Positions 353 through 54,797 of a stretch of 64,000 bases of DNA are shown piece by piece. Positions within the stretch are counted from its first letter, which is position 1, and each line of letters opens with the position of its first letter. The stretch lies in NCBI RefSeq assembly GCF_988243305.1, contig NZ_OZ547136.1; one strand, given 5' to 3'. A program made the position numbers and the translations under genes. Below the pieces are notes generated by a model. That model searched no databases, was not told the DNA's origin, and was given only the letters and a program-made list of their open reading frames with translations.

Positions 353-540
353 TGACCATCAGCGATATCATTGAAATTATTGTCGTTTGCGCACTGATAT
401 TTTTCCCGCTGGGCTATCTGGCGCGGCACTCTTTGCGACGCATTCGCGACACCTTACGTTTGTTCTTTGCTAAACCTCGTTATGTTAAACCGGCCGGGAC
501 GTTACGCCGCACGGAAAAAGCCAGGGCAACCAAAAAATGA
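349..540 (+). CDS. bcsF: Cellulose biosynthesis small membrane protein BcsF (63 aa)
   Basis: 63-aa [27 protein letters not shown]... with one hydrophobic helix; 4-bp overlaps with both neighbours. Confidence 0.85.
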
Positions 541-2216
541 CTCAATTTACGCAAAATACCGCCATGCCTTCTTCCCTCTGGCAATACTGGCGCGGCCTTT
601 CCGGCTGGAACTTCTATTTTCTGGTTAAGTTCGGCCTGTTGTGGGCGGGATATCTTAACTTCCATCCGCTCCTCAATCTGGTGTTTGCCGCGTTTCTGCT
701 GATGCCCATTCCGCGCTACAGCCTGCATCGCTTACGCCACTGGATTGCCCTGCCGATCGGCTTTGCTTTGTTCTGGCATGACACCTGGTTACCTGGCCCG
801 GAAAGCATAATGAGCCAGGGTTCGCAGGTGGCGGGGTTCAGTACCGATTATTTAATCGACCTTGTCACACGCTTTATTAACTGGCAGATGATTGGGGCCA
901 TTTTTGTTTTATTAGTGGCCTGGTTATTCCTGTCACAATGGATTCGCATTACCGTTTTTGTGGTTGCCATTCTGCTATGGCTGAACGTACTTACCCTGGC
1001 GGGACCAAGTTTCTCCTTGTGGCCAGCCGGTCAACCGACGACCACTGTAACAACGACGGGTGGTAACGCAGCGGCAACCGTTGCGGCGACGGGTGGCGCA
1101 CCGGTAGTGGGTGATATGCCCGCACAAACTGCACCGCCAACAACGGCGAACCTTAACGCCTGGCTGAATAATTTCTATAACGCGGAGGCGAAACGTAAAT
1201 CGACCTTCCCGTCTTCGCTGCCCGCTGATGCTCAGCCATTTGAACTACTGGTGATTAATATCTGTTCGCTTTCCTGGTCGGATATAGAAGCCGCCGGGTT
1301 GATGTCGCATCCGCTGTGGTCGCATTTCGATATTGAGTTCAAGAACTTTAACTCCGCCACCTCCTACAGTGGCCCGGCGGCGATCCGTTTACTGCGCGCC
1401 AGCTGCGGGCAGACTTCGCACACTAATCTGTATCAACCGGCAAATAATGACTGCTATCTGTTTGATAACCTGTCGAAACTGGGCTTTACCCAGCACCTGA
1501 TGATGGGACATAACGGCCAGTTCGGCGGTTTTTTGAAAGAAGTTCGCGAAAATGGCGGCATGCAGACCGAATTGATGGATCAAACAAATTTGCCGGTTAT
1601 TTTGCTGGGCTTTGATGGTTCGCCGGTTTATGACGATACCGCCGTGCTTAACCGCTGGCTGGACGTTACCGAAAAAGATAAAAACAGCCGTAGTGCCACG
1701 TTCTACAACACGCTTCCACTGCATGACGGCAACCATTATCCGGGCGTCAGCAAAACAGCGGATTACAAAGCGCGGGCGCAGAAATTCTTTGATGAACTGG
1801 ACGCCTTCTTTACTGAACTGGAGAAATCGGGTCGTAAAGTGATGGTGGTCGTGGTGCCGGAACACGGTGGCGCGCTGAAGGGCGACAGAATGCAGGTATC
1901 TGGCCTACGTGATATCCCTAGCCCGTCTATCACAGACGTCCCCGTTGGGGTGAAATTCTTCGGCATGAAGGCACCACATCAGGGGGCACCGATTGTCATC
2001 GACCAACCGAGCAGCTTCCTGGCTATCTCCGATCTGGTGGTTCGCGTTCTTGATGGCAAGATTTTCTCCGAAGACAATGTTGACTGGAAAAAACTCACCA
2101 GTGGGTTGCCACAAACAGCACCGGTCTCAGAGAACTCAAATGCAGTAGTTATTCAATACCAGGATAAACCGTACGTTCGCCTGAACGGCGGCGACTGGGT
2201 GCCTTACCCGCAATAA
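537..2216 (+). CDS. bcsG: Cellulose phosphoethanolamine transferase BcsG (559 aa)
   Basis: 559-aa ORF with N-terminal membrane helices, T/A/G/P-rich linker and C-terminal alkaline-phosphatase-like domain; length matches BcsG. Confidence 0.92.
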
Positions 2217-2302
2217 GAACGAAAAAGGCCGCAGAGTTTCACCCCTGCGGCCTGGTCCGGGCGCAAATTGCCATTACGGCAGCCTGACGCCCGCATGACA
2301 CG

Positions 2303-2410
2303 TTACTTCCGCTTATTCAGCGAGTTCACGATCAGACTGGCAAGAATGCCAGCAATGACCGGAGCCGCTAAATCATGCCAGAAGGCCATGCCCAGTTCTG
2401 CGAGCGTCAT
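2303..2410 (-). CDS. Ldr-family type I toxin, 35 aa (copy 1, Trp->Ser variant near C-terminus)
   Basis: MTLAELGMAFWHDLAAPVIAGILASLIVNSLNKRK; ATG at 2408-2410 on minus strand; matches LdrD-type peptide as remembered. Confidence 0.8.
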   Translation of the reverse strand: MTLAELGMAFWHDLAAPVIAGILASLIVNSLNKRK

Positions 2411-2457
2411 ATAGCCGCCTCTGTTGTAATGACAACGTTTCGCGGCTATTCTTGAGT

Positions 2458-2524
2458 TGTTTGGGTTCAAGATTAGCCCCCGTGATGTTGTCAGGTGCAT
2501 ACCTGCAATATGCGGGGGTTTTCT
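2458..2524 (+). ncRNA. Rdl-type antisense sRNA (copy 1), ends in GC hairpin plus U-run
   Basis: cccccg...cggggg stem followed by ttttctctc; lies antisense to the ldr 5' leader; exact 5' end not determinable from sequence. Confidence 0.45.
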
Positions 2525-2785
2525 CTCTCCAGCAACCAATGCCACTAGGGATTAAGCCCCCGCAACATTGCGCCTCACCGGAACCCTTCCGGCTTGCCGC
2601 TGATTCTACGGCCATTTTTGTTCGTCGAAATCCATCACTTCTTCACTCTGTGCTGCGCATTCCGCAGAATATTATCCGCTTGCAACCGTTGCATTTTTCT
2701 TACGAAAAAGGCCGCAGAGTTTTATCCCTGCGGCCTGATCCGGGCGCAAATTGCCATTACGGCAGCCTGACGCCCGTCTGACACG

Positions 2786-2893
2786 TTACTTCCGCTTGTT
2801 CAGCCAGTTCACGATCAGACTGGCAAGAATGCCAGCAATGACCGGAGCCGCTAAATCATGCCAGAAGGCCATGCCCAGCTCTGCGAGCGTCAT
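2786..2893 (-). CDS. Ldr-family type I toxin, 35 aa (copy 2)
   Basis: MTLAELGMAFWHDLAAPVIAGILASLIVNWLNKRK; ATG at 2891-2893 on minus strand. Confidence 0.85.
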   Translation of the reverse strand: MTLAELGMAFWHDLAAPVIAGILASLIVNWLNKRK

Positions 2894-2940
2894 ATAGCCG
2901 CCTGAGTTGTAATGACAACGTTTCGCGGCTATTCTTGTAT

Positions 2941-3007
2941 TGTTTGGATGCAAGAATGGCCCCCGTGGTGTTGTCAGGTGCATACCTGCAACGTGCGGGG
3001 GTTTTCT
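2941..3007 (+). ncRNA. Rdl-type antisense sRNA (copy 2)
   Basis: Same hairpin plus U-run terminator as copy 1, offset by one repeat period. Confidence 0.45.
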
Positions 3008-3268
3008 CTCTCCAGCAACCAATGCCACCAGGGATAAAGCCCCCGCAACATTGCGCCTCACCGGAACCTTTCCGGCTTGCCGCTGATTCTACGACTGTTT
3101 TTCTGCTCCGGAATCCGTCACTTCTTCACTCTGTGCTGTGCATTCCGCAGAATATTATCCGCTTGCAACCGTTGCATTTTTCTTACGAAAAAGGCCGCAG
3201 AGTTTTATCCCTGCGGCCTGATCCGGACGCAACTTGCCATTACGGCAGCCTGACGCCCGTCTGACACG

Positions 3269-3376
3269 TTACTTCCGCTTATTCAGCCAATTCACGATCA
3301 TGCTGGCAAGAATGCCAGCAATGACCGGAGCCGCTAAATCATGCCAGAAGGCCATGCCCAGTTCTGCGAGCGTCAT
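3269..3376 (-). CDS. ldrD: Ldr-family type I toxin, 35 aa (copy 3, closest to the K-12 LdrD sequence as I recall it)
   Basis: MTLAELGMAFWHDLAAPVIAGILASMIVNWLNKRK; ATG at 3374-3376 on minus strand. Confidence 0.85.
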   Translation of the reverse strand: MTLAELGMAFWHDLAAPVIAGILASMIVNWLNKRK

Positions 3377-3425
3377 ATAGCCGCCTGTGTTGTAATGACA
3401 ACGTTTCGCGGCTATTCTTGAGTGG

Positions 3426-3492
3426 TCTAGGTTCAAGATTAGCCCCCGTGATGTTGTCAGGTGCATACCTGCAACGTGCGGGGGTTTTCTCT
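3426..3492 (+). ncRNA. Rdl-type antisense sRNA (copy 3)
   Basis: Hairpin cccccgtgatg...cgtgcggggg followed by ttttctctctcc. Confidence 0.45.
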
Positions 3493-3851
3493 CTCCAGCA
3501 ACCAATGCCACCAGGGATTAAGCCCCCGCAACATTGCGCCTCACCGGAACCTTTCCGGCTTGCCGCTGATTTTACGATTGCTTTTTACCGTCAGCACCCG
3601 GCAATCTTCCTCATTGCGCGATGCCTTCCAGCTTAATTTCTTTATTTGCAATAGTTGCAGTTCATATCCGAGCTGACTCCAGACTGGTAGTGAAATGCGC
3701 AATTTTGTAGAATTGCGCCTCCTCGCGACCTCCCCAGTGAATCTGTTGCCTCATTTTTTACATACTGCGTATTCGACTTCTCCACCTGTTGCGCAAGAGA
3801 AACTGGGTTTATTCATTTTTGCGAGGCCGACTTCTTTCTGGACAGGACTTT

Positions 3852-5123
3852 ATGCAGCACAACACACTACCGAAACACAATCAGAAATTGCCGTTTACAC
3901 GCTACGACTTCGGCTGGGTTTTATTATGCATAGGCATGGCGATTGGTGCCGGAACCGTGCTGATGCCAGTACAAATTGGCTTGAAGGGAATTTGGGTATT
4001 TATTACCGCAGCGATCATTGCTTATCCTGCCACCTGGGTAGTGCAGGACATTTATTTAAAAACCCTTTCTGAAAGCGATTCCTGTAATGACTACACCGAT
4101 ATTATCAGTCATTACCTGGGGAAGAACTGGGGAATTTTCCTCGGGGTTATCTACTTTTTGATGATTATCCACGGGATTTTTATCTACTCTCTCTCCGTGG
4201 TTTTCGACAGCGCCTCGTACCTGAAAACCTTCGGTTTAACCGATGCCGATCTTTCACAATCTCTACTTTATAAAGTCGCCATTTTCGCCGTACTGGTGGC
4301 AATTGCGTCTGGTGGTGAACGATTACTGTTTAAGATTTCCGGGCCAATGGTGGTGGTCAAAGTAGGGATTATCGTCGTGTTCGGTTTTGCGATGATCCCG
4401 CACTGGAATTTCGCCAATATAACCGCCTTCCCGCAAGCCTCCGTCTTTTTCCGCGATGTCCTGCTTACCATTCCCTTTTGCTTCTTTTCTGCGGTATTTA
4501 TTCAGGTACTTAACCCAATGAATATTGCCTATCGTAAACGGGAAGCGGATAAAGTACTGGCAACCCGGCTCGCGCTGCGTACCCACCGAATTAGTTATAT
4601 CACGCTCATTGCGGTGATCCTGTTTTTTGCCTTTTCGTTTACCTTCTCAATTAGCCACGAAGAAGCCGTTTCTGCCTTTGAACAAAATATCTCGGCACTG
4701 GCACTGGCCGCGCAGGTGATCCCTGGGCATATCATTCATATCACCTCTACGGTGCTGAATATCTTTGCCGTACTGACCGCATTCTTTGGCATTTATCTCG
4801 GTTTCCACGAGGCCATTAAAGGCATTATTCTCAATCTGTTAAGCCGAATTATTGATACCAAGAAAATTAACTCACGCATGCTGACTCTGGCGATCTGCGC
4901 TTTTATCGTCATTACGTTGACGATTTGGGTTTCGTTTCGTGTATCGGTGCTGGTGTTCTTTCAGTTGGGAAGCCCGTTATATGGCATTGTGTCGTGCCTC
5001 ATTCCGTTTTTCCTGATCTATAAAGTCGCACAACTGGAAAAACTTCGCGGGTTTAAAGCCTGGCTGATTCTGCTGTACGGCATTTTGTTATGCTTGTCGC
5101 CACTGTTGAAGCTGATTGAGTAA
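3852..5123 (+). CDS. yhjV: Inner-membrane amino-acid transporter family protein YhjV (423 aa)
   Basis: Multi-helix membrane protein starting [34 protein letters not shown]; start taken at the internal Met to match 423 aa. Confidence 0.88.
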
Positions 5124-11060: not shown

Positions 11061-11596
11061 CAACGGTGAGAATCCACAAACAAAGATTAAAAAAACTTCA
11101 AACAGCTATTTGCAGCAGAGAAATTTGTGCTACTCCAACATGACCAGAACAATCAGCTTAATATTTAGCAACAATTGGTGATTAAGTTTTATGCATTTTG
11201 TGAAAAAAATCTGAGGAAAAGGTGGATATCTGAGCGATTAATACCATGAACGCTAAAACGCACAGCGGAAAATGCCAGCGCCAGTCATAAGTAACGCAAA
11301 AAAAGATTTAAGCAAATATAAAAAAAGACAATGGTTTCTGTCACAAATCCGTTAATGGATAGTGAGATATGGGGCGCAAATTTGGCAGGGAAATGTGTGG
11401 TGTGTTGCCGTTTAGATCGGATAAGACGGATACGCTGTATCCCACAATGAGTGCGGTGCCGAATTTGGTCGGTGCCAGAGGATTACTCGCCACTTCGTGG
11501 CTCGCCCTGCGGGCCGTTGCTGGCGCAACGTTCTCTCGCTTCGCTCGAGTCGAACCTCCCTGCCCCCGGAGGTTCTCATCCTCATAGGCTACAAAT

Positions 11597-11624
11597 GCAA
11601 AAAAGCCTGCTCGTTGAGCAGGCT
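11597..11624 (-). terminator. Rho-independent terminator downstream of proK
   Basis: Hairpin agcctgctcgttgagcaggct flanked by A-run on plus strand (U-run on minus). Confidence 0.75.
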
Positions 11625-11633
11625 TTTCGAATT

Positions 11634-11710
<77 letters not shown>

Positions 11711-22899: not shown

Positions 22900-22907
22900 G
22901 CACATCA

Positions 22908-23066
22908 ACGGTTTGACGTACAGACCATTAAAGCAGTGTAGTAAGGCAAGTCCCTTCAAGAGTTATCGTTGATACCCCTCGTAGTGCACATTCCTTTAAC
23001 GCTTCAAAATCTGTAAAGCACGCCATATCGCCGAAAGGCACACTTAATTATTAAAGGTAATACACT
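22908..23066 (+). promoter_or_regulatory. cspA 159-nt 5' UTR (cold-box / RNA thermosensor leader)
   Basis: Leader beginning ACGGTTTGACGTACAGACC... runs to the ATG at 23067; established cspA biology. Confidence 0.8.
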
Positions 23067-23279
23067 ATGTCCGGTAAAATGACTGGTATCGTAAAATGGT
23101 TCAACGCTGACAAAGGCTTCGGCTTCATCACTCCTGACGATGGCTCTAAAGACGTGTTCGTACACTTCTCTGCTATCCAGAACGATGGTTACAAATCTCT
23201 GGACGAAGGTCAGAAAGTGTCCTTCACCATCGAAAGCGGCGCTAAAGGCCCGGCAGCTGGTAACGTAACCAGCCTGTAA
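23067..23279 (+). CDS. cspA: Major cold-shock protein CspA (70 aa)
   Basis: [70 protein letters not shown]. Confidence 0.98.
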
Positions 23280-23306
23280 TCTCTGCTTAAAAGCACAGAA
23301 TCTAAG

Positions 23307-23337
23307 ATCCCTGCCATTTGGCGGGGATTTTTTTATT
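23307..23337 (+). terminator. cspA rho-independent terminator
   Basis: Hairpin tccctgcc-attt-ggcgggga followed by tttttttatttg. Confidence 0.8.
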
Positions 23338-23466: not shown

Positions 23467-23619
23467 TTACTCTTTCAAATTGCAGGCTAAAAATGCCGCC
23501 AGCTCATAACTCCCCTGTTTAATATGCAATTCACACAGTGAATCTCTTATCATCCAGGTGAAAAATAAAAGCGTGCAACAAATCACTATTAAAGAAAGTA
23601 ATCTATATTTCTGCGGCAT
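23467..23619 (-). CDS. hokA: Hok-family type I toxin HokA (50 aa)
   Basis: MPQKYRLLSLIVICCTLLFFTWMIRDSLCELHIKQGSYELAAFLACNLKE; an in-frame 20-codon upstream extension exists in the ORF track. Confidence 0.85.
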   Translation of the reverse strand: MPQKYRLLSLIVICCTLLFFTWMIRDSLCELHIKQGSYELAAFLACNLKE

Positions 23620-23896
23620 TCCCAGCCTCCTGTGTTGATTTCCAACGAGTAAGAGGCTAACCTTATGGTGTTCAGGCATAGGGTAGCCTCACTTTGATTT
23701 ATAGTCAGGTGGGGCTTTTCTCTGTCTGCCTTTCGGTGAATACCTGAGACAAACAGTCTCAAGCACCCGCAGCTATTCTAGCTTAATAAGTTCGTTTCTT
23801 CTCCTTGATATAATCCTAAAAAAATCTCATAAAATTAATATATGAGACAATCTTTATTCAGCAGAAGATTATTAAAGGTTGCTCTATTATTTAGCG

Positions 23897-35363: not shown

Positions 35364-36522
35364 AGTGAAATTGGCCGTACCGACATCCGGTGACTTTTCC
35401 GGGCTGAAGTCACTGAATTTGCAGGTCTTCGTGATGATTGCAGCTATCATCGCAATCATGCTGTTCTTTACCTGGACCACCGATGGTGCCTACTTAAGCG
35501 CCCGTAACGTCTCCAACCTGTTACGCCAGACCGCGATTACCGGCATCCTCGCAGTAGGAATGGTGTTCGTCATAATTTCTGCTGAAATCGACCTTTCCGT
35601 CGGCTCAATGATGGGGCTGTTAGGTGGCGTCGCGGCGATTTGTGACGTCTGGTTAGGCTGGCCTTTGCCACTGACCATCATTGTAACGCTGGTTCTGGGA
35701 CTGCTTCTCGGTGCCTGGAACGGATGGTGGGTCGCGTACCGTAAAGTCCCTTCATTTATTGTCACTCTCGCGGGCATGTTGGCATTTCGCGGCATACTCA
35801 TTGGCATCACCAACGGCACGACTGTTTCCCCCACCAGCGCCGCGATGTCACAAATCGGGCAAAGCTATCTACCCGCCAGCACCGGCTTCATCATTGGCGC
35901 GCTTGGCTTAATGGCTTTTGTTGGCTGGCAATGGCGCGGAAGAATGCGCCGTCAGGCTTTGGGTTTGCAGTCTCCGGCCTCTACCGCAGTTGTCGGTCGC
36001 CAGGCATTAACGGCGATTATCGTCTTAGGCGCAATCTGGCTGTTGAACGATTACCGTGGCGTTCCCACTCCTGTTCTGCTGCTGACGTTGCTGTTACTCG
36101 GCGGAATGTTTATGGCAACGCGGACGGCATTTGGACGACGCATTTATGCCATCGGCGGCAATCTGGAAGCAGCACGGCTCTCCGGGATTAACGTTGAACG
36201 CACCAAACTTGCCGTGTTCGCAATTAACGGATTAATGGTAGCCATCGCCGGATTAATCCTCAGTTCTCGACTTGGCGCTGGTTCACCTTCTGCGGGGAAT
36301 ATCGCCGAGCTGGACGCAATTGCAGCATGCGTGATTGGCGGCACCAGTCTGGCAGGCGGCGTCGGGAGCGTGGCCGGAGCGGTAATGGGGGCATTCATCA
36401 TGGCTTCACTGGATAACGGCATGAGTATGATGGATGTACCGACCTTCTGGCAGTATATCGTTAAAGGTGCGATTCTGTTGCTGGCAGTATGGATGGACTC
36501 CGCAACCAAACGCCGTTCTTGA
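35341..36522 (+). CDS. xylH: D-xylose ABC transporter permease XylH (393 aa)
   Basis: Polytopic permease; 23-bp overlap with xylG. Confidence 0.95.
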
Positions 36523-36599
36523 TTTTGATAAAAATTTTCTCAAAGCCGGTAACGTATTACCGGTTTTGAGTTTTTGCATGATTCAGCAGGAAAAGAACC

Positions 36600-37778
36600 A
36601 TGTTTACTAAACGTCACCGCATCACATTACTGTTCAATGCCAATAAAGCCTATGACCGGCAGGTAGTAGAAGGCGTAGGGGAATATTTACAGGCGTCACA
36701 ATCGGAATGGGATATTTTCATTGAAGAAGATTTCCGCGCCCGCATTGATAAAATCAAGGACTGGTTAGGAGATGGCGTCATTGCCGACTTCGACGACAAA
36801 CAAATCGAGCAAGCGCTGGCTGATGTCGACGTCCCCATTGTTGGGGTTGGCGGCTCGTATCACCTTGCAGAAAGTTACCCACCCGTTCATTACATTGCCA
36901 CCGATAACTATGCGCTGGTTGAAAGCGCATTTTTGCATTTAAAAGAGAAAGGCGTTAACCGCTTTGCTTTTTATGGTCTTCCGGAATCAAGCGGTAAACG
37001 TTGGGCCACTGAACGCGAATATGCATTTCGTCAGCTTGTCGCCGAAGAAAAGTATCGCGGAGTGGTTTATCAGGGATTAGAAACCGCGCCAGAGAACTGG
37101 CAACACGCGCAAAATCGGCTGGCAGACTGGCTACAAACGCTGCCACCGCAAACCGGGATTATTGCCGTTACTGACGCCCGGGCGCGGCATATTCTGCAAG
37201 TATGTGAACATCTACATATTCCCGTACCGGAAAAATTATGCGTGATTGGCATCGATAACGAAGAACTGACCCGCTATCTGTCGCGTGTCGCCCTTTCTTC
37301 GGTCGCTCAGGGCGCGCGGCAAATGGGCTATCAGGCGGCAAAACTGTTGCATCGATTATTAGATAAAGAAGAAATGCCGCTACAGCGGATTTTGGTCCCA
37401 CCAGTTCGCGTCATTGAACGGCGCTCAACAGATTACCGCTCGCTGACCGATCCCGCCGTTATTCAGGCCATGCATTACATTCGTAATCACGCCTGTAAAG
37501 GGATTAAAGTGGATCAGGTACTCGATGCGGTCGGGATCTCGCGCTCCAATCTTGAGAAGCGTTTTAAAGAAGAGGTGGGTGAAACCATCCATGCCATGAT
37601 TCATGCCGAGAAGCTGGAGAAAGCGCGCAGTCTGCTGATTTCAACCACCTTGTCGATCAATGAGATATCGCAAATGTGCGGTTATCCATCGCTGCAATAT
37701 TTCTACTCTGTTTTTAAAAAAGCATATGACACGACGCCAAAAGAGTATCGCGATGTAAATAGCGAGGTCATGTTGTAG
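36600..37778 (+). CDS. xylR: Xylose operon transcriptional activator XylR (AraC family, 392 aa)
   Basis: N-terminal periplasmic-binding-like sensor domain plus C-terminal AraC HTH. Confidence 0.93.
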   Translation: MFTKRHRITLLFNANKAYDRQVVEGVGEYLQASQSEWDIFIEEDFRARIDKIKDWLGDGVIADFDDKQIEQALADVDVPIVGVGGSYHLAESYPPVHYIATDNYALVESAFLHLKEKGVNRFAFYGLPESSGKRWATEREYAFRQLVAEEKYRGVVYQGLETAPENWQHAQNRLADWLQTLPPQTGIIAVTDARARHILQVCEHLHIPVPEKLCVIGIDNEELTRYLSRVALSSVAQGARQMGYQAAKLLHRLLDKEEMPLQRILVPPVRVIERRSTDYRSLTDPAVIQAMHYIRNHACKGIKVDQVLDAVGISRSNLEKRFKEEVGETIHAMIHAEKLEKARSLLISTTLSINEISQMCGYPSLQYFYSVFKKAYDTTPKEYRDVNSEVML

Positions 37779-37842
37779 CGATGATGAGAATTGTCGGCGT
37801 CACATCAGGTAACCCAGCACAACCACCTGATACGAGCAAAAG

Positions 37843-37870
37843 CCTTATCCGACTGACAAGTCGGATAAGG
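37843..37870 (-). terminator. Hairpin between convergent xylR and bax (probable bax terminator)
   Basis: ccttatccga-ctgacaag-tcggataagg with partial U-run on minus strand. Confidence 0.5.
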
Positions 37871-37885
37871 CTCGAGGAAATGCAA

Positions 37886-38710
37886 TTACATATGTGCCGC
37901 GATTAACCGTTGGTTATCCTGGTACATTGCGAACAGGTAGTTGTTATAACTCTTCCCTTTGGTCGAGTAGCCCTTCAGCTTGTGAATCATCGCTGTGGCA
38001 GTCACTTCCTGATCCGCTTTACGCAGCTGTGCACGCGATTTACGGAACGAAGAGTAAGCCGGGTGAGTATTCAGGTTAGTGACATAGGCGCTCACCGATT
38101 CTTTGACAGAACTAAACTGTGAGTACCCCTTCACTTTACCCGGCGCATTAGTACAACGTCCTTTCATGCATTTCATGCCGAACAGGTTGTTGTTGTTGCG
38201 CGCCAGCTTCGACGTTCCCCAACCGCTTTCTGCTGCAGCCATCGTCGCCACCATACTAGTGGGGATAATGTCTACGCGTTCAAGCAAGGTATTCCACGGG
38301 ATTTTGCGCGTATTACCAGACCACTTCACCTTGTAGCGTTTGGCGATGTCTTTCAGACGCGCACGCTCAGCAGGTGACCATTGGCCCTGATACTGTTTTG
38401 AAATGAGCCAGTTACGTTCCGCAGTAATGGCCGCATTTTGGCTGGTAATGTAAGGCATTACAGTCCGGAGAAACGCCTTTTTCCTTGGTGTTCCGGAAGG
38501 GTATTTTCGCAAATCAGGAAGTGAACTACTCTTTGCACTATTGCGAGAATACTCTTGTTTACTGCTTACCTGTTTATTACTAGCTTTAGTTAAGTGGGAC
38601 TTTTGACTCGCTGTTGTTGTGTGCGTCTTCGCTAACACCTCACTCGAAAACACCAGAGTGAGTAACATAAGAATCATCGCCCCATATCGTCGTATGGGAG
38701 TCAAAATCAT
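37886..38710 (-). CDS. bax: Bax protein (putative glucosaminidase-domain protein, 274 aa)
   Basis: 274-aa ORF with signal peptide, recognised by sequence and position. Confidence 0.85.
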   Translation of the reverse strand: MILTPIRRYGAMILMLLTLVFSSEVLAKTHTTTASQKSHLTKASNKQVSSKQEYSRNSAKSSSLPDLRKYPSGTPRKKAFLRTVMPYITSQNAAITAERNWLISKQYQGQWSPAERARLKDIAKRYKVKWSGNTRKIPWNTLLERVDIIPTSMVATMAAAESGWGTSKLARNNNNLFGMKCMKGRCTNAPGKVKGYSQFSSVKESVSAYVTNLNTHPAYSSFRKSRAQLRKADQEVTATAMIHKLKGYSTKGKSYNNYLFAMYQDNQRLIAAHM

Positions 38711-38938
38711 CAGGTCTCCTGGTCGGATTTAATCATTCCAACACCTTATATTTTTCACAAATTTGAGAGTTGAATCTCAAATCATATCAAAAATAGCTGT
38801 CAAGAGCACCCCAAGGAATAGTCCAAATCTGAAACTATGTCACGAGTTAACGATTCAGATTGGCGCTAAATCGCAGAAAATGTGGGGTTTATCGCAAAAT
38901 TCAGCCGTTTTTTGCGCGCGATCGCTCACCCTTGCTTC

Positions 38939-38968
38939 TCATCCTGTGGACTTACCGCTCAGGGATGA
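38939..38968 (+). promoter_or_regulatory. Candidate MalT boxes in the malS promoter
   Basis: GGATGA-type hexamers at 38939-38944 (inverted) and 38963-38968, about 60-90 bp upstream of malS; malS is MalT-dependent in E. coli. Confidence 0.4.
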
Positions 38969-39029
38969 GTTTTGTCTGGCTTATCGCTGGCAAACTGTCT
39001 GAAATCGCAGCAATAAGGACTCATCCGCC

Positions 39030-41060
39030 ATGAAACTCGCCGTCTGTTTTCTGACACTCCTTCCTGGCTTCGCCGTTGCCGCCAGCTGGACTTCTCCGGG
39101 ATTCCCTGCCTTTAGCGAACAGGGGACGGGAACATTTGTCAGCCACGCGCAGTTGCCCAAAGGTACGCGTCCACTAACGCTAAATTTTGACCAACAGTGC
39201 TGGCAGCCTGCGGATGCGATAAAACTCAATCAGATGCTTTCCCTGCAACCTTGTAGCAACACGCCGCCTCAATGGCGATTGTTCAGGGACGGCGAATATA
39301 CGCTGCAACTAGACACCCGCTCCGGTACACCAACATTGATGATTTCCATCCAGAACGCCGTCGAACCGGTAGCAAGCCTGGTCCGTGAATGCCCGAAATG
39401 GGATGGATTACCGCTCACACTGGATGTCAGCGCCACTTTTCCGGAGGGAGCCGCTGTCCGGGATTATTACAGCCAGCAAATTGCGATAGTGAAGAACGGT
39501 CAAATAACGTTACAACCCGCTGCCACCAGCAACGGTTTACTCCTGCTGGAACGGGCAGAAACTGACACATCCGCCCCTTTCGACTGGCATAACGCCACGG
39601 TTTACTTTGTGCTGACAGATCGTTTCGAAAACGGCGATCCCAATAATGACCAGAGTTACGGACGTCATAAAGACGGTATGGCAGAAATTGGCACTTTTCA
39701 CGGCGGCGATTTACGCGGCCTGACCAACAAACTGGATTACCTCCAGCAGCTGGGCGTCAATGCTTTATGGATAAGTGCCCCATTTGAGCAAATTCACGGC
39801 TGGGTCGGCGGCGGTACAAAAGGCGATTTCCCGCATTATGCCTACCACGGTTATTACACACAGGACTGGACGAATCTTGATGCCAATATGGGCAGTGAAG
39901 CCGATCTACGGACACTGGTTGATAGCGCGCATCAGCGCGGTATTCGTATTCTCTTTGATGTCGTGATGAACCACACCGGCTATGCCACACTGGCGGATAT
40001 GCAGGAGTATCAGTTTGGCGCGTTATATCTTTCTGGTGACGAAGTGAAAAAAACGTTGGGTGAACGCTGGAGCGACTGGAAACCTGCCGCCGGGCAAACC
40101 TGGCATAGCTTTAACGATTACATTAATTTCAGCGACAAAACAGGCTGGGATAAATGGTGGGGAAAAAACTGGATCAGAACCGATATCGGCGATTACGACA
40201 ATCCTGGATTCGACGATCTCACCATGTCGCTGGCCTTTTTGCCGGATATCAAAACAGAATCCACCACCGCCTCTGGCCTGCCTGTATTCTATCAAAACAA
40301 GTCAGATACCCACGCCAAAGCCATTGACGGCTATACGCCGCGCGATTACTTAACCCACTGGTTAAGCCAATGGGTCCGCGACTACGGTATTGATGGTTTT
40401 CGGGTCGATACCGCCAAACATGTTGAGTTGCCCGCCTGGCAGCAACTGAAAACTCAGGCCAGCGCCGCACTTCGCGAATGGAAAAAAGCTAACCCCGAGA
40501 AAGCATTAGATGACAAACCTTTCTGGATGACCGGTGAAGCCTGGGGCCACGGCGTGATGCAAAGTGACTACTATCGCCACGGCTTCGATGCGATGATCAA
40601 TTTCGATTATCAGGAGCAGGCGGCTAAAGCAGTCGATTGTCTGGCGCAGATGGATACGACCTGGCAGCAAATGGCGGAGAAATTGCAGGATTTCAACGTG
40701 TTGAGCTACCTCTCGTCGCATGATACCCGCCTGTTCCGTGAAGGGGGCGACAAAGCAGCAGAGTTATTATTATTAGCGCCAGGCGCGGTACAAATCTTTT
40801 ATGGTGATGAATCCTCGCGTCCGTTCGGCCCCACCGGTTCGGATCCGCTGCAAGGTACGCGTTCGGATATGAACTGGCAGGATGTTAGCGGTAAATCTGC
40901 CGCCAGCGTCGCGCACTGGCAGAAAATCAGCCAGTTCCGCGCCCGCCATCCCGCAATTGGCGAGGGCAAACAAACGACACTTTCGCTGAAGCAGGGCTAC
41001 GGCTTTGTTCGTGAGCATGGCGACGATAAAGTGCTGGTCATCTGGGCTGGGCAACAGTGA
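39030..41060 (+). CDS. malS: Periplasmic alpha-amylase MalS (676 aa)
   Basis: Signal peptide plus GH13 motifs (DVVMNH, GFRVDTAKH). Confidence 0.93.
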   Translation: MKLAVCFLTLLPGFAVAASWTSPGFPAFSEQGTGTFVSHAQLPKGTRPLTLNFDQQCWQPADAIKLNQMLSLQPCSNTPPQWRLFRDGEYTLQLDTRSGTPTLMISIQNAVEPVASLVRECPKWDGLPLTLDVSATFPEGAAVRDYYSQQIAIVKNGQITLQPAATSNGLLLLERAETDTSAPFDWHNATVYFVLTDRFENGDPNNDQSYGRHKDGMAEIGTFHGGDLRGLTNKLDYLQQLGVNALWISAPFEQIHGWVGGGTKGDFPHYAYHGYYTQDWTNLDANMGSEADLRTLVDSAHQRGIRILFDVVMNHTGYATLADMQEYQFGALYLSGDEVKKTLGERWSDWKPAAGQTWHSFNDYINFSDKTGWDKWWGKNWIRTDIGDYDNPGFDDLTMSLAFLPDIKTESTTASGLPVFYQNKSDTHAKAIDGYTPRDYLTHWLSQWVRDYGIDGFRVDTAKHVELPAWQQLKTQASAALREWKKANPEKALDDKPFWMTGEAWGHGVMQSDYYRHGFDAMINFDYQEQAAKAVDCLAQMDTTWQQMAEKLQDFNVLSYLSSHDTRLFREGGDKAAELLLLAPGAVQIFYGDESSRPFGPTGSDPLQGTRSDMNWQDVSGKSAASVAHWQKISQFRARHPAIGEGKQTTLSLKQGYGFVREHGDDKVLVIWAGQQ

Positions 41061-41237
41061 CTTTTCCGGCTTCCCGTTCGTCAGTACCTCGGGAAGCCGC
41101 CAACCAGGATAAAATGTCAGCTCTAATCAGCGTTGCAGGATAAAGCACCGCTCCCTCTTCAACAGAGCGATTTGCACCCCAGCAAATGTAGCGTTATTGT
41201 TACCTTCCTTGCTACAGAGTTCGACAGATATCCCGCT

Positions 41238-42491
41238 ATGACATTCTCCCTTTTTGGTGACAAATTTACCCGCCACTCCGGCATTACGCTGCTGATGGAA
41301 GATCTGAACGACGGTTTACGCACGCCTGGCGCGATTATGCTCGGCGGCGGTAATCCAGCGCAGATCCCGGAAATGCAGGACTACTTCCAGACGCTACTGA
41401 CCGACATGCTGGAAAGTGGCAAAGCGACTGATGCACTGTGCAATTACGACGGTCCACAGGGGAAAACGGAGCTACTCACACTGCTTGCCGGAATGCTGCG
41501 CGAGAAGTTGGGTTGGGATATCGAACCACAGAATATTGCACTAACAAACGGCAGCCAGAGCGCGTTTTTCTACTTATTTAATCTGTTTGCCGGACGCCGT
41601 GCCGATGGTCGGGTCAAAAAAGTGCTGTTCCCGCTGGCACCTGAATATATTGGCTACGCTGACGCCGGACTGGAAGAAGATCTGTTTGTCTCTGCGCGTC
41701 CGAATATTGAACTGCTGCCGGAAGGCCAGTTTAAATACCACGTCGATTTTGAGCATCTGCATATTGGCGAAGAAACCGGGATGATTTGCGTCTCCCGGCC
41801 GACGAATCCAACAGGCAATGTGATTACTGACGAAGAGTTGCTGAAGCTTGACGCGCTGGCGAATCAACACGGCATTCCGCTGGTGATTGATAACGCTTAT
41901 GGCGTCCCGTTCCCGGGTATCATCTTCAGCGAAGCGCGCCCGCTGTGGAATCCGAATATCGTACTGTGCATGAGTCTTTCCAAGCTGGGGCTACCTGGCT
42001 CCCGCTGCGGCATTATCATCGCCAATGAAAAAATCATCACCGCCATCACCAATATGAACGGCATTATCAGCCTGGCACCTGGCGGTATTGGTCCGGCGAT
42101 GATGTGTGAAATGATTAAGCGTAACGATCTGCTGCGCCTGTCTGAAACAGTCATCAAACCGTTTTACTACCAGCGTGTTCAGGAAACTATCGCCATCATT
42201 CGCCGCTATTTACCGGAAGATCGCTGCCTGATTCATAAACCGGAAGGAGCCATTTTCCTCTGGCTATGGTTTAAGGATTTGCCCATTACGACCGAGCAGC
42301 TCTATCAGCGCCTGAAAGCACGCGGCGTGCTGATGGTGCCGGGGCACAACTTCTTCCCAGGGCTGGATAAACCGTGGCCACATACACATCAATGTATGCG
42401 CATGAACTACGTGCCGGAGCCGGATAAAATTGAGGCGGGTGTGAAGATTCTGGCAGAAGAGATAGAAAGAGCCTGGGCTGAAAGTCACTAA
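41238..42491 (+). CDS. avtA: Valine--pyruvate aminotransferase AvtA (417 aa)
   Basis: Start at MTFSLFGDKFTRHSGITLLMEDLNDG; 35-codon upstream extension rejected. Confidence 0.9.
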   Translation: MTFSLFGDKFTRHSGITLLMEDLNDGLRTPGAIMLGGGNPAQIPEMQDYFQTLLTDMLESGKATDALCNYDGPQGKTELLTLLAGMLREKLGWDIEPQNIALTNGSQSAFFYLFNLFAGRRADGRVKKVLFPLAPEYIGYADAGLEEDLFVSARPNIELLPEGQFKYHVDFEHLHIGEETGMICVSRPTNPTGNVITDEELLKLDALANQHGIPLVIDNAYGVPFPGIIFSEARPLWNPNIVLCMSLSKLGLPGSRCGIIIANEKIITAITNMNGIISLAPGGIGPAMMCEMIKRNDLLRLSETVIKPFYYQRVQETIAIIRRYLPEDRCLIHKPEGAIFLWLWFKDLPITTEQLYQRLKARGVLMVPGHNFFPGLDKPWPHTHQCMRMNYVPEPDKIEAGVKILAEEIERAWAESH

Positions 42492-42496
42492 AAATT

Positions 42497-42595
42497 GCCT
42501 GATGCGCTACGCTTATCAGGCCTACATGATTTCTGCAATATATTGAATTTGGTAGAATTTGTAGGCCGGATAAGGCGTTTTAGCCGCATCCGGCA
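42497..42595. repeat. BIME: two REP palindromes in inverted orientation
   Basis: gcctgatgcgctacgcttatcaggcctac (42497-42525) and gtaggccggataaggcgttttagccgcatccggca (42561-42595). Confidence 0.8.
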
Positions 42596-42641
42596 TAAAC
42601 AAAGCGCACTATTCCGGCGTTGAGAAACGCCGGAAAACGTT

Positions 42642-43115
42642 TCAAACAGGCTGCTGCCGTAGCCGATGCCGCTGCACTTTCTCGACATCCATGCACTGCA
42701 ACGCCTTTGTCGGGCAGGCTTCAACACAGGCCGGCCCCGTCTCCCGATGCCAGCACAGATCGCACTTAATCGCCCTCGCCTTTTTGCGCGAAGAAACGAC
42801 CTCCATCGCACCAAACGGGCAAGCCAGCATACAGCTTTTACACCCAATGCAACGTGATTGTTCAACGAAAATATGCCCATGTTCGCGGCTTATCGCGTCA
42901 ACAGGGCAGACATTCGCGCACGGTGCATCTTCACACTGATGGCAGGCTACAGCCGTGGTCCATGTGTGGTCTTTAATGACACGAATACGGGAAATAAACT
43001 CGTCTGGTGACAACGCAGCGCAATCCTGATTCTCCTGATGCGACACTGCGCAAGCCACTTCACAGGTACGGCAACCGATACATTTCGTCGCATCCGCAAT
43101 AATAAACCGGTTCAT
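42642..43115 (-). CDS. ysaA: Ferredoxin-like 4Fe-4S cluster protein YsaA
   Basis: Multiple CxxCxxCxxxCP motifs (CIGCRTCEVAC, CIGCKSCMLACP); start between 43115 and 43121. Confidence 0.8.
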   Translation of the reverse strand: MNRFIIADATKCIGCRTCEVACAVSHQENQDCAALSPDEFISRIRVIKDHTWTTAVACHQCEDAPCANVCPVDAISREHGHIFVEQSRCIGCKSCMLACPFGAMEVVSSRKKARAIKCDLCWHRETGPACVEACPTKALQCMDVEKVQRHRLRQQPV

Positions 43116-43216
43116 GATCACTCCTTTGCACTAAAACAGCAGAGTGCCAGAGAGCGCGTCTCTACTGCTTTGATCCAACGAAGGAAATGTTAAAGTTTTG
43201 GCACTTGTCCAAAGGG

Positions 43217-44065
43217 TTATGTGATCGCGCCCTGGTCGTCCCTGACAGTAAATCCCAGTTCATTAGAAATAGCCTGCGCGGTTTCACGCAGTGGTTTCAG
43301 GAGATTTTTCTCCCCCACCTGTTTCAGACGTGATGTCGAAAGCGAAATCGACACGGCGTACGGCACCCGCCCATGAATATCAAACACCGGAACAGCAATA
43401 CAGGAGACGCCGAGTTCGTTTTCTTCTCTGTCCATCGCCGCTCCGCTTTCACGAATGTGCGCCAGTTCGTCGAACATCGCGGGCAGCTCGGTAATGGTAT
43501 TGCGGGTTAACGGCTGGATCTCATGTTGATGGCTTTTCCAGTATGACTTCACGTAGTCCGGGTGACCAAACGCCATGTAGATCTTGCCCATTGCGGAACA
43601 GTAGAGCGGCATATGCTGGCCTATATAGGCACGGGTTCGCAGCATCCCGGTTGTGGGTTCCAGCTTATAAATCAAAATAGCGTGATCGTCTTCGCGGCTG
43701 GAGAAGTTAATGGTTTCACCAGTGGCGATGTTCAGTGCCTCAAGATGCGGAGCGGCGATATGAATGATATTCAGCGAAGACAGCGCCTTCTGCCCGACGG
43801 CAATAAATTTGGTAGTCAGGCGGTAACTCCCTGCGGCGGGCGCGGTGGTCACATAGCCGCAGGATTGTAATCCCTGCAATAAGCGATGGACGGTACTCTT
43901 ATTTAAACCAGCCAGCTCCGAAAGATGCGCCAACGGACAACCGTTTGGATAGTTGCTCAAAATCTCAATCAGCATCAACCCGCGAAACAGACTCTGGCTT
44001 CCGGCTGGACGCTCTTTTTCCTGCGCCATCTCGTTCTCTTTTTTTCCCATCACTTCTTTCCCCAT
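43217..44065 (-). CDS. yiaJ: IclR-family transcriptional repressor YiaJ
   Basis: N-terminal winged HTH plus IclR effector domain; divergent from yiaK. Confidence 0.85.
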   Translation of the reverse strand: MGKEVMGKKENEMAQEKERPAGSQSLFRGLMLIEILSNYPNGCPLAHLSELAGLNKSTVHRLLQGLQSCGYVTTAPAAGSYRLTTKFIAVGQKALSSLNIIHIAAPHLEALNIATGETINFSSREDDHAILIYKLEPTTGMLRTRAYIGQHMPLYCSAMGKIYMAFGHPDYVKSYWKSHQHEIQPLTRNTITELPAMFDELAHIRESGAAMDREENELGVSCIAVPVFDIHGRVPYAVSISLSTSRLKQVGEKNLLKPLRETAQAISNELGFTVRDDQGAIT

Positions 44066-44265
44066 TTTGTCGCGTCCTGATGGTAGCGCAAAGTGTGTCG
44101 TAGTTCACGATCTCGACAGATAATTTATAACCACTTGATTTTTAAGTTTTTTGAAATTCATCAATCAGATTGCTTTGTTAAAAAGCGATCGATATATTTG
44201 AAATCAGATTTCGCATATTGAAATTTTAAGCCAAAAAAGCGATCAAAAAAACAAGGAAGCCAGGG

Positions 44266-45264
44266 ATGAAAGTGACATTTGAGCAGTTAAAAGCAGCCTT
44301 TAATCGAGTCTTAATTTCACGCGGCGTTGACAGCGAAACGGCTGATGCCTGTGCCGAAATGTTCGCCCGCACCACCGAATCCGGCGTTTATTCTCACGGC
44401 GTCAACCGTTTCCCTCGTTTCATTCAACAACTGGAAAACGGCGATATCATTCCTGATGCCCAACCCAAACGTATAACCAGCCTCGGCGCAATTGAACAGT
44501 GGGACGCCCAGCGTTCGATCGGTAACCTGACAGCGAAAAAGATGATGGATCGCGCCATCGAACTGGCTGCCGATCATGGTATTGGTCTGGTGGCACTACG
44601 TAATGCCAACCACTGGATGCGCGGCGGCAGCTACGGCTGGCAGGCGGCGGAAAAAGGCTATATTGGCATTTGCTGGACCAACTCCATCGCCGTAATGCCG
44701 CCGTGGGGCGCAAAAGAGTGTCGCATCGGCACCAACCCGCTGATCGTCGCCATTCCTTCTACCCCAATCACCATGGTCGATATGTCGATGTCGATGTTCT
44801 CTTACGGCATGTTAGAAGTTAACCGTCTGGCAGGCCGTCAGCTCCCGGTCGATGGTGGCTTTGATGATGAGGGCAATTTGACCAAAGAACCTGGCGTTAT
44901 CGAGAAGAATCGCCGCATTTTACCGATGGGCTACTGGAAAGGTTCTGGCATGTCGATTGTGCTGGATATGATCGCCACTCTCCTTTCCGACGGCGCATCG
45001 GTTGCCGAAGTCACCCAGGACAACAGCGACGAATACGGCGTTTCGCAAATCTTTATCGCCATCGAAGTGGATAAATTGATCGACGGCCCCACCCGCGATG
45101 CCAAGCTGCAACGCATCATGGATTACGTTACTACAGCTGAACGCGCTGACGAAAACCAGGCCATCCGCTTACCCGGCCACGAATTTACTACCCTGCTGGC
45201 CGAAAACCGCCGTAACGGCATCACCGTTGATGACAGCGTGTGGGCCAAAATCCAGGCGTTATGA
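44266..45264 (+). CDS. yiaK: 2,3-diketo-L-gulonate reductase YiaK
   Basis: 332-aa Ldh/Mdh-2 family protein, first gene of the yiaK-S operon. Confidence 0.9.
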
Positions 45265-45272
45265 GGAGATAA

Positions 45273-45743
<471 letters not shown>

Positions 45744-45860
45744 TCGAATAATCGTCTACGCCAGAACGCCTGGGTAATGTTATTGCTCTAACTATATTAA
45801 TAATTCAGGTTGCTGCACATGCAACTTGAATTATGACAGACATAGCCTCAAGGAATAGCT

Positions 45861-46334
45861 ATGAAAAAAATACTTGAAGCAATACTGGCGATTAATCTCG
45901 CCGTACTTTCCTGTATTGTGTTTATAAACATTATTTTAAGATATGGTTTTCAGACAAGCATTTTATCTGTAGATGAATTGTCACGTTATTTATTTGTCTG
46001 GTTAACATTTATTGGCGCAATTGTGGCTTTTATGGATAACGCCCACGTTCAGGTCACCTTTCTGGTGGAGAAACTCTCCCCCGCATGGCAGCGACGAGTC
46101 GCTCTGGTTACCCATTCCTTAATCTTATTTATTTGTGGCGCACTGGCCTGGGGCGCAACGCTAAAAACAATTCAGGACTGGAGCGATTATTCACCGATCC
46201 TCGGTTTGCCCATCGGCCTGATGTATGCCGCTTGTCTGCCCACCAGCCTCGTTATCGCATTCTTTGAACTGCGTCATTTATATCAACTCATCACGCGTAG
46301 CAATTCTCTAACGTCGCCACCGCAAGGAGCTTAA
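45861..46334 (+). CDS. yiaM: TRAP transporter small permease YiaM
   Basis: 157-aa four-helix DctQ-like protein. Confidence 0.88.
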
Positions 46335-46336
46335 TC

Positions 46337-47614
46337 ATGGCTGTGCTGATTTTTCTGGGCTGTCTGTTGGGTGGTATTGCTATCGGTTTGCCTATTGCCT
46401 GGGCACTGTTGTTGTGCGGGGCGGCGTTAATGTTCTGGCTGGAGATGTTTGATGTCCAGATCATGGCACAAACGCTGGTGAACGGAGCCGACAGCTTCTC
46501 CCTGCTGGCGATTCCGTTCTTTGTGCTGGCGGGTGAAATCATGAATGCGGGCGGCTTGTCAAAACGCATTGTTGACCTGCCGATGAAACTGGTGGGGCAT
46601 AAACCAGGCGGGCTGGGCTACGTCGGCGTGCTGGCGGCTATGATTATGGCAAGCCTTTCTGGTTCTGCCGTTGCGGATACCGCCGCCGTTGCCGCTCTAC
46701 TGGTGCCGATGATGCGCAGCGCCAACTACCCGGTCAACCGGGCGGCGGGGCTGATTGCCTCTGGCGGCATTATCGCGCCAATTATTCCCCCTTCCATTCC
46801 GTTTATTATTTTCGGCGTTTCCAGCGGATTATCCATCAGTAAGCTGTTTATGGCGGGCATTGCCCCTGGCATGATGATGGGCGCAACGCTGATGCTTACC
46901 TGGTGGTGGCAGGCCAGTCGCCTTAATTTACCCCGCCAGCAAAAAGCAACGATGCAGGAAATCTGGCACTCTTTTGTCTCCGGTATCTGGGCGCTGTTTC
47001 TTCCAGTCATCATTATTGGCGGGTTTCGCTCCGGTCTGTTTACCCCTACCGAAGCCGGGGCCGTTGCTGCTTTCTATGCGCTGTTTGTCGCCACAGTTAT
47101 TTACCGTGAAATGACCTTCGCCACACTTTGGCATGTGCTCATTGGCGCAGCGAAAACGACCTCAGTGGTGATGTTTCTGGTGGCCTCGGCACAAGTTTCC
47201 GCCTGGCTGATAACCATTGCTGAACTGCCGATGATGGTTTCTGATTTACTGCAACCGCTGGTCGATTCACCGCGTCTGCTGTTTATCGTCATTATGGTGG
47301 CTATCCTGATTGTCGGCATGGTCATGGATTTAACGCCGACGGTATTAATTCTTACCCCGGTATTAATGCCTTTAGTTAAAGAGGCAGGAATCGATCCGAT
47401 TTATTTCGGTGTCATGTTTATCATTAACTGCTCAATCGGCTTAATTACACCGCCTATCGGTAATGTGCTTAACGTTATTTCAGGGGTGGCAAAACTCAAA
47501 TTCGATGATGCAGTCAGAGGCGTTTTCCCTTACGTCCTGGTTTTATATTCATTATTAGTCGTATTTGTTTTTATTCCCGATCTCATCATCCTCCCTTTGA
47601 AATGGATTAATTAA
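46337..47614 (+). CDS. yiaN: TRAP transporter large permease YiaN
   Basis: 425-aa DctM-like polytopic membrane protein. Confidence 0.9.
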   Translation: MAVLIFLGCLLGGIAIGLPIAWALLLCGAALMFWLEMFDVQIMAQTLVNGADSFSLLAIPFFVLAGEIMNAGGLSKRIVDLPMKLVGHKPGGLGYVGVLAAMIMASLSGSAVADTAAVAALLVPMMRSANYPVNRAAGLIASGGIIAPIIPPSIPFIIFGVSSGLSISKLFMAGIAPGMMMGATLMLTWWWQASRLNLPRQQKATMQEIWHSFVSGIWALFLPVIIIGGFRSGLFTPTEAGAVAAFYALFVATVIYREMTFATLWHVLIGAAKTTSVVMFLVASAQVSAWLITIAELPMMVSDLLQPLVDSPRLLFIVIMVAILIVGMVMDLTPTVLILTPVLMPLVKEAGIDPIYFGVMFIINCSIGLITPPIGNVLNVISGVAKLKFDDAVRGVFPYVLVLYSLLVVFVFIPDLIILPLKWIN

Positions 47615-47626
47615 AAGGAAAATATT

Positions 47627-48613: not shown

Positions 48614-48616
48614 ACC

Positions 48617-50113: not shown

Positions 50114-50772
50114 GCCGACCACTTCTGCAACTGGCCCTCGACCACTCATCACTTGAAGACGCACAGCGCGACGTGATGCTGTTAAAAGACAGCGTCGATA
50201 TCGTCGAAGCGGGCACCATTCTCTGTTTAAACGAAGGGCTTGGCGCAGTGAAAGCCTTGCGCGAACAGTGCCCGAACAAAATCATCGTCGCTGACTGGAA
50301 GGTCGCCGATGCCGGTGAAACGCTCGCGCAACAGGCGTTTGGCGCAGGCGCTAACTGGATGACCATCATCTGCGCCGCACCGCTCGCGACGGTAGAAAAA
50401 GGTCACACAATGGCGCAACGCTGCGGTGGTGAAATCCAGATCGAGCTGTTCGGTAACTGGACGCTGGACGACGCCCGCGACTGGCATCGTATTGGCGTGC
50501 GGCAGGCGATTTATCATCGTGGTCGTGATGCACAGGCCAGCGGGCAACAGTGGGGCGAAGCCGATCTGGCACGCATGAAGGCGCTTTCCGATATCGGCCT
50601 TGAGCTTTCCATTACCGGCGGTATTACTCCTGCTGATCTGCCACTGTTTAAAGATATTCGCGTGAAAGCGTTTATTGCCGGGCGAGCACTGGCAGGCGCG
50701 GCAAATCCGGCACAGGTGGCAGGCGATTTCCATGCGCAAATCGACGCTATCTGGGGAGGCGCGCGTGCGTAA
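50110..50772 (+). CDS. sgbH: 3-keto-L-gulonate-6-phosphate decarboxylase SgbH
   Basis: 220-aa OMP-decarboxylase-like ORF; 4-bp overlap with lyxK. Confidence 0.9.
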
Positions 50773-52314: not shown

Positions 52315-52345
52315 TCCCTCACGCCGGGGCTTCATTGCCCCGGCA

Positions 52346-53161: not shown

Positions 53162-53386
53162 TGATATGTAATTTCCCGCTTATTCATTAATGATTAAACA
53201 CATTACCTTTTGATTATGAATCAAAAACATTAATTTCACCTGATCCAATTCACACTTTTAAATTCAGGTCGGAATCGTCACCTTTTTTTACTCTTTTCTC
53301 GCCTTGTTGATATTCCCGTTCACGGCAGAATTAATCATGTCATTGCAATAAAACTAAAAATTGCTCCCTATTCACGAGGAATATCT

Positions 53387-54787: not shown

Positions 54788-54797
54788 GGAGCACAAG

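Follow-up and report, generated by a model that had tools for sequence, protein, structure and literature searches.

Does the serine that replaces a tryptophan near the C terminus of the first of three tandem Ldr toxin peptides mark a copy that is losing its function, or an inherited variant of a working gene? The question was raised by a sequence-only reading of the window, the whole 64,000-nucleotide stretch of DNA analysed here. That reading held that the repeats were diverging, that the first toxin copy might be attenuated and that its antisense partner differed as well. We examined the layout of the locus, the signals of the variant unit, the distribution of the allele among sequenced genomes and the record of residue 30 across the toxin family.

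The LDR-D array and the change at residue 30

The array occupies positions 2219-3667, between bcsG and yhjV. On its left, bcsG (537..2216, plus strand, assigned from its ORF and the annotation of matching genomes) is convergent with the ldr ORFs. On its right lies yhjV (3852..5123, plus strand), placed within the ORF at 3789-5123 from its first ATG, at 3852; the resulting 1272-nt ORF has the same length as the yhjV CDS annotated in matching genomes. Three 483-bp units on the minus strand were delimited by repeat search, TRF and alignment: unit 1 (2219..2701), at the bcsG-proximal edge, with a Ser30 ldr and a TA-type Rdl; unit 2 (2702..3184), with Leu26 and Trp30, also read by translation; and the yhjV-proximal unit 3 (3185..3667), with Met26 and Trp30. 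The repeat search returned three copies at a spacing of 483, and TRF gave a tandem period of 483, 2.8 copies and 93% matches over 2219-3586. In unit 3 the repeat stops near 3586, and the remainder diverges from units 1 and 2 (alignment columns 1-100 differ in copy 3). The locus thus has the form of an LDR element, tandem direct repeats of about 500 bp with one ldr ORF and one Rdl per unit, every Rdl having a terminator-like 3′ end. The 3′ end of ldr copy 1 carries a terminator-like hairpin (2226..2253, minus strand) that faces the 3′ end of bcsG and whose G+C-rich stem recurs at 2709-2736 and 3192-3219.

All three ldr ORFs lie on the minus strand, and their 35-residue translations match the Pfam family PF13940 (Ldr_toxin, cut-off 27 bits) over the full length, residues 1-35. 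Copy 1 (2303..2410) encodes MTLAELGMAFWHDLAAPVIAGILASLIVNSLNKRK and scores 83.4 bits; copy 2 (2786..2893; Leu26, Trp30, ending ...SLIVNWLNKRK) scores 90.7 bits and copy 3 (3269..3376; Met26, Trp30, ending ...SMIVNWLNKRK) 93.2 bits. The peptides also align end to end with the LdrD NMR structure 5LBJ (residues 1-35, E = 1e-16). On the plus strand, the Rdl RNAs at 2459..2524 (unit 1), 2942..3007 (unit 2) and 3425..3490 (unit 3) match the Rfam rdlD family RF01813 with 86.2, 81.7 and 90.4 bits, respectively, against a gathering score of 50. By that measure the most divergent Rdl is that of copy 2, not that of copy 1. The Rdl of unit 1 lies opposite the 5′ leader, 49 nt upstream of the ldr start codon, as in a type I toxin-antitoxin module. 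The full-length Pfam matches, the 5LBJ alignment, the Rfam matches and the presence of the K-12 unit at the same site together identify the locus as the LDR-D type I toxin-antitoxin module in a three-unit form.

The ldrD/rdlD locus (LDR-D) of E. coli K-12 was described by Kawano et al. (2002), as cited in PMC2887945. It shares with the window its site between bcsG and yhjV, the 35-residue toxin family, the cis-antisense Rdl (RF01813) and the orientation convergent with bcsG, but it has one unit instead of three; K-12 LdrD carries Phe3, Met26 and Trp30, whereas copy 1 carries Leu3, Leu26 and Ser30. Toxicity on over-production and translational repression by Rdl have been published only for K-12 LdrD and LdrA (PMC8309996, PMC12643268).

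The serine itself is beyond dispute. Translation of the minus strand gives codon TCG at 2321..2323 in copy 1 where copies 2 and 3 have TGG, in agreement with the earlier reading; the variant base, 2322, is g on the plus strand in copy 1 and c in the other copies. The C termini read ...ASLIVNSLNKRK in copy 1, ...ASLIVNWLNKRK in copy 2 and ...ASMIVNWLNKRK in copy 3, and Ser30/Trp30 is the sole difference between the peptides of copies 1 and 2. By the Fst/Ldr signature (Fozo et al. 2010), copy 1 lacks the tryptophan found in copies 2 and 3 and keeps the charged NKRK tail. The PXXXG motif is present in all three copies as P17-V-I-A-G21.

Divergence among the repeats, also claimed from the sequence alone, is borne out: over 384 aligned positions, the units show 19-22 differences. 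One replacement in a 35-codon ORF is expected at this level of divergence, and the only notable aspect of the copy-1 change is which residue was replaced.

Between bcsG and yhjV, the copy number of LDR-D units ranges from 1 (K-12) to 5 (042, SMS-3-5), and inner units have been duplicated in blocks (for example, u2/u4 and u3/u5 of 042). Klebsiella michiganensis also has a bcsG-adjacent Ldr array, which places the origin of the array site before the Escherichia-Klebsiella split.

Elsewhere in the window, a second type I toxin-antitoxin locus lies at 23467-23768 on the minus strand, just downstream of cspA (22907-23334). Its Rfam sok match (124 bits) overlies an apparently intact Hok-type ORF within a 70-aa mok-like ORF (...MPQKYRLLSLIVICCTLLFFTWMIRDSLCELHIKQGSYELAAFLACNLKE). 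A tRNA-Pro(CGG) on the minus strand (11634-11710) precedes a repeat RNA element of the RtT type, which spans 11466-11601 (98.7 bits).

Putative expression signals and the antisense RNA of unit 1

A consensus promoter scan found no sigma-70 match in 2200-3800. By eye, a TTGTAA (2424-2429) and a TATTCT (2447-2452) separated by a 17-nt spacer stand upstream of Rdl, and a TAGAAT stands upstream of the ldr leader, both below the scan threshold; the promoters of ldr and Rdl are thus putative. A GAGG Shine-Dalgarno sequence is read 7 nt before the ATG of the unit 1 ldr. In a predicted 381-nt ldr mRNA with assumed transcript ends, the Ser allele adds one G-C pair to a coding-region hairpin (−182.8 versus −180.6 kcal/mol) and leaves the accessibility of the Shine-Dalgarno sequence unchanged, the 5′ end again being assumed. 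With ORF, GAGG sequence, Rdl hairpin and terminator all intact, unit 1 is most likely still an expressed ldr/rdl pair.

Immediately upstream of the ldr ATG, the minus strand reads CAGAGG (2418-2422), CTCAGG (2901-2905) and CACAGG (3384-3388) in units 1, 2 and 3, so the GAGG core occurs in copy 1 only. On the opposite strand, these variable bases come just before the putative −35 box of Rdl. In all three units the ldr frame can be followed from the ATG back across the Rdl-complementary region to an upstream GTG without a stop codon, giving extended ORFs of 80, 91 and 80 aa (2303-2545, 2786-3061 and 3269-3511, minus strand). These extended frames could be due to chance, or could be a leader frame coupled to ldr translation as in mok/hok.

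The antisense partner of copy 1 does differ, as had been noted: in Rdl positions 2505-2518, copy 1 reads gcaaTAtgcggggg and copies 2 and 3 read gcaaCGtgcggggg, with TA instead of CG at 2509..2510 (plus strand). The two bases correspond to positions 51/52 of the Rfam model, paired with 29/28, where one G-C pair becomes G.U and one U.G becomes U-A; cmscan flags no non-canonical pair in the TA form. The predicted fold energy is essentially unchanged (−30.2 versus −31.7 kcal/mol), and the predicted hairpin is stable (z = −4.2) and the same as that of copy 3. Since both hairpin pairs are kept and fold and energy hardly move, the Rdl change is a structure-preserving polymorphism.

That the toxin and Rdl changes belong together, as implied by the mention of both in one breath, is not supported across strains. 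TA, present in 300 of the 5426 genomes, is combined with Ser30 in the window, NY1601, Z1323HEC0462, FDAARGOS_497 and IMT16316, but the Rdl carries CG in 8 of the 13 Ser30 units examined, and TA accompanies Trp30 in unit 1 of Nissle as well as in the last units of IAI39, SMS-3-5 and ECCNB12-2. Ser30 occurs with at least five different Rdl haplotypes, which indicates that recombination has separated the two sites. A compensatory co-change of toxin and antitoxin was rejected because of this lack of linkage. The Rdl CG-to-TA change is a separate polymorphism and no partner of the toxin change; it recombines freely relative to Ser30.

Distribution and array-edge position of the Ser30 allele

The frequency of the allele was determined with a 30-base query that has the variant at its centre, an arrangement in which each 28-base megablast word spans the Ser codon. 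Of 5426 complete E. coli genomes, 317 (∼6%) carry the exact 30-mer, each of them once and always on the chromosome, and in all 60 rows listed the site lies under an annotated intact Ldr CDS. In a collection of 15 billion proteins, the Ser30 peptide is found on at least 1,000 contigs and is as frequent as K-12 LdrD (995). The variant peptide is already known, as RefSeq WP_000170736.1, an annotated Ldr family protein, and the identical peptide is annotated as a CDS in NY1601, Z1323HEC0462, 042, IAI39, SMS-3-5 and others. Carriers include 042, IAI39, SMS-3-5, CE10 and ST648, which we take to be phylogroup D and F strains, and the allele is associated with at least six bcsG protein alleles. Ser30 is therefore a widespread inherited allele, neither new nor specific to one strain: an unexceptional polymorphism that segregates in a type I toxin-antitoxin array of a known kind, with no new system involved. 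Frequent occurrence of the Ser form among functional Ldr peptides had been named beforehand as a ground for giving up attenuation; as far as frequency goes, these counts show the form to be common.

The same counts dispose of an artefact. Tandem repeats are prone to collapse and consensus errors, but the same base in 317 independent complete genomes is no sequencing error, and the whole NY1601 array differs from that of the window at a single one of 1701 positions; an assembly fault at this site is refuted, with next to no probability left to it.

At its 3′ end, the bcsG of the window is nearest to the 042/118UI type (two differences in 480 nt). In the strains 042, IAI39, SMS-3-5 and others that encode WP_000170736.1, the identical peptide is likewise in the bcsG-proximal unit, but the Rdl of that unit is usually CG where the window has TA. 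Over positions 36000-56000 of the window (the malS, lyxK, yiaN, avtA region), the best identity among the 5426 complete E. coli genomes is 98.5-99.0%. Set against the 1700/1701 match of the array to NY1601, this suggests that the source strain is mosaic or belongs to a sparsely sampled lineage.

When a degenerate 30-mer around codon 30 was searched against genome contigs, only two loci were returned: a Trp30 sequence in an E. coli representative, and NZ_JABWSY010000055.1, a low-coverage contig of 503 bp from a ‘Bacillus sp.' assembly. Neither is informative on the age of Ser30 outside E. coli. The contig codes for an LdrD of the E. coli type (MPFAELG...NWLNKRK) and is almost certainly contamination.

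To place the allele within its arrays, we examined 13 Ser30 arrays (the window and 12 genomes) out of the 317 carriers. In all 13, Ser30 is confined to the bcsG-proximal unit and is not repeated; each array, of 2-5 units in all, also holds one to four units with Trp30. Compared with unit 1 of other strains, that of Nissle with its Trp30 among them, unit 1 of the window shows 1-9 differences in 384 positions; compared with the other units of its own array, it shows 19-22. Because unit 1s are closer across strains than to their own arrays, the edge unit is an old positional orthologue, which refines the claim of diverging repeats: unit 1 has evolved separately in its position. The DNA of the Ser30 ORF is identical in 12 of the 13 arrays, and that of ST2747 adds a conservative V18I. 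This pattern fits a single origin of Ser30, although the absence of differences among Ser30 lineages has low power (∼2.5 expected, P ∼0.08 by our own Poisson estimate) and both the single-origin and the edge-protection steps rest on 13 sampled arrays of 317.

A plausible course of events can be proposed. A single TGG-to-TCG transversion on the edge-unit haplotype would have produced the allele that now stands in ∼6% of complete genomes. Duplication of inner units is visible at the protein level (u3 = u5 in 042, u2 = u3 in IAI39), and unequal crossing-over or gene conversion would shuffle these units while rarely reaching Ser30 at the edge. The repeat homology that extends from the Ser codon to the array boundary is only 103 nt long and is broken by 6-7 mismatches; it contains no perfect run longer than 38 nt with unit 2 or 26 nt with unit 3. 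Such short, interrupted homology would explain why Ser30 seems to have been neither copied inward nor erased.

The constancy of the allele bears on the suggestion that copy 1 is dead or decaying, with Ser30 inactivating the toxin and the unit persisting because deletion of an edge unit is rare. The loss of the family's signature residue speaks for this, and Ser30 is never the sole copy in the 13 sampled arrays, which is consistent with redundancy. However, no second lesion has followed in any sampled lineage (V18I is the one further change), which makes a dead copy less likely than neutrality; the CDS is annotated as intact in every one of the 60 listed genomes; and Rdl, Shine-Dalgarno sequence and terminator are kept, with Rdl substitutions that preserve pairing. 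We regard a dead copy as improbable.

The opposite possibility is that Ser30 is an adaptive, sub-functionalised paralogue, for example with an altered interaction with the host factor YajC or with Trp30 Ldr peptides, selected in phylogroup D/F-type strains. The allele has indeed remained unchanged through several recombination backgrounds, but edge protection and drift explain the pattern equally well, and its frequency (317/5426) is modest. Adaptation is speculative and more improbable still.

The signature tryptophan and the possible attenuation of copy 1

Trp30 is the published signature residue of the Fst/Ldr superfamily (PMC2887945, PMC7472228, PMC8147318), so the replaced site is a meaningful one to have singled out. 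Replacement by serine lowers the Pfam score by 7.3 bits (from 90.7 to 83.4), and a weak, sub-threshold NCBIfam Fst match is lost. That this tryptophan is otherwise invariant is true of the copies seen, but the statement was based on three copies only. Homologues whose tail is intact were collected from 1.84 billion representatives and by cluster look-ups, and with few exceptions they carry Trp at position 30. One exception is an E. coli allele resembling LdrB, with Leu30 and a retained Trp31; it is found on 998 contigs and forms the middle unit of the array on the chaA side. In Klebsiella michiganensis, every copy of the bcsG-adjacent array (1-3 units) has Arg30 (...IVSRMDNRK), in two main forms found on 694 and 596 contigs, and a rare allele has Cys30 (11 contigs). 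The K. michiganensis array resembles that of the window in its synteny beside bcsG and in having a residue 30 other than Trp, but its Arg30 is in all copies and not at the edge only, and arginine can still anchor at the interface.

A further exception is Fst-pAD1, which lacks the signature Trp (PMC2887945); it has Val at the site and is toxic, on which ground reviews call the residue ‘not essential' (PMC7472228, PMC8147318). Since Fst-pAD1 also lacks the signature, its absence does not exclude copy 1 from the superfamily. Like copy 1, Fst-pAD1 is a small single-pass toxin that naturally lacks the signature Trp and has the PXXXG motif, which lies within the transmembrane helix of Fst/Ldr peptides (PMC7472228). 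It differs in coming from a Gram-positive plasmid, in an antisense RNA that overlaps the 3′ end and not the 5′ leader, in its acidic C terminus and in a replacement residue that is hydrophobic, unlike Ser. Given the Val, Leu, Arg and Cys exceptions, Trp30 has been lost repeatedly, in parallel in several lineages, and its loss is compatible with long-term retention of the locus.

What serine would do at this position can be considered from the predicted architecture of the module, in which each unit would produce two RNAs, the ldr mRNA, which encodes a single-pass membrane peptide of 35 residues, and an Rdl that is cis-antisense to the 5′ leader of that mRNA. In LdrD, the tryptophans W11 and W30 bracket the hydrophobic stretch. 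Ser30 removes the aromatic residue where the transmembrane helix meets the cytoplasmic KRK tail. Trp contributes about −1.85 kcal/mol on the Wimley-White interfacial scale and Ser about +0.13 kcal/mol, so that the replacement would cost about 2 kcal/mol of interfacial anchoring. Our best guess is that the Ser30 peptide is still membrane-active and somewhat weaker. Such weakening would be tolerated because at least one Trp30 copy remains in each array sampled. Attenuation, as first suggested, is in these terms a plausible biophysical guess.

The serious rival is neutrality, by which the Ser30 form would be as toxic as the Trp30 form and would have drifted on the edge unit. Trp loss need not weaken the toxin, as Fst-pAD1 is toxic with Val and K. 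michiganensis has Arg30 fixed in every copy; the Leu30 allele on its 998 contigs, the verdict of the reviews, and the presence of Ser30 in ∼6% of genomes alongside at least six bcsG protein alleles point the same way. On the other hand, apart from the cases named and the Cys30 allele, the retrieved full-length Ldr homologues with an intact tail have Trp30. Val, Leu and Arg can sit or anchor at the membrane interface, as Ser cannot, and the Leu30 allele retains Trp31. We consider neutrality possible, somewhat short of an even chance. The account that we prefer, of a standing Ser30 allele in an intact edge unit, with a weaker peptide and a separate Rdl polymorphism, is as a whole reasonably probable.

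In the literature searched, we found neither the Ser30 (W30S) Ldr allele, nor its restriction to the edge unit, nor a role for the signature Trp in Ldr peptides. The small new points are the ∼6% prevalence, the confinement to the edge unit, the absence of linkage to the Rdl variant and the parallel loss of Trp elsewhere. For the biology of these arrays, the locus offers a clean example of an array-edge repeat that escapes homogenisation. If, improbably, Ser30 were a selectively maintained paralogue, weakened or modulatory, that altered the action of YajC or of the Trp30 toxins of its array, the tandem array of phylogroup D/F-type E. coli would be a graded set of toxins and not a redundant one. 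Because copies 1 and 2 differ in protein by Trp30/Ser30 alone, the array is a natural experiment, of modest importance, on the one residue that defines the Fst/Ldr superfamily.
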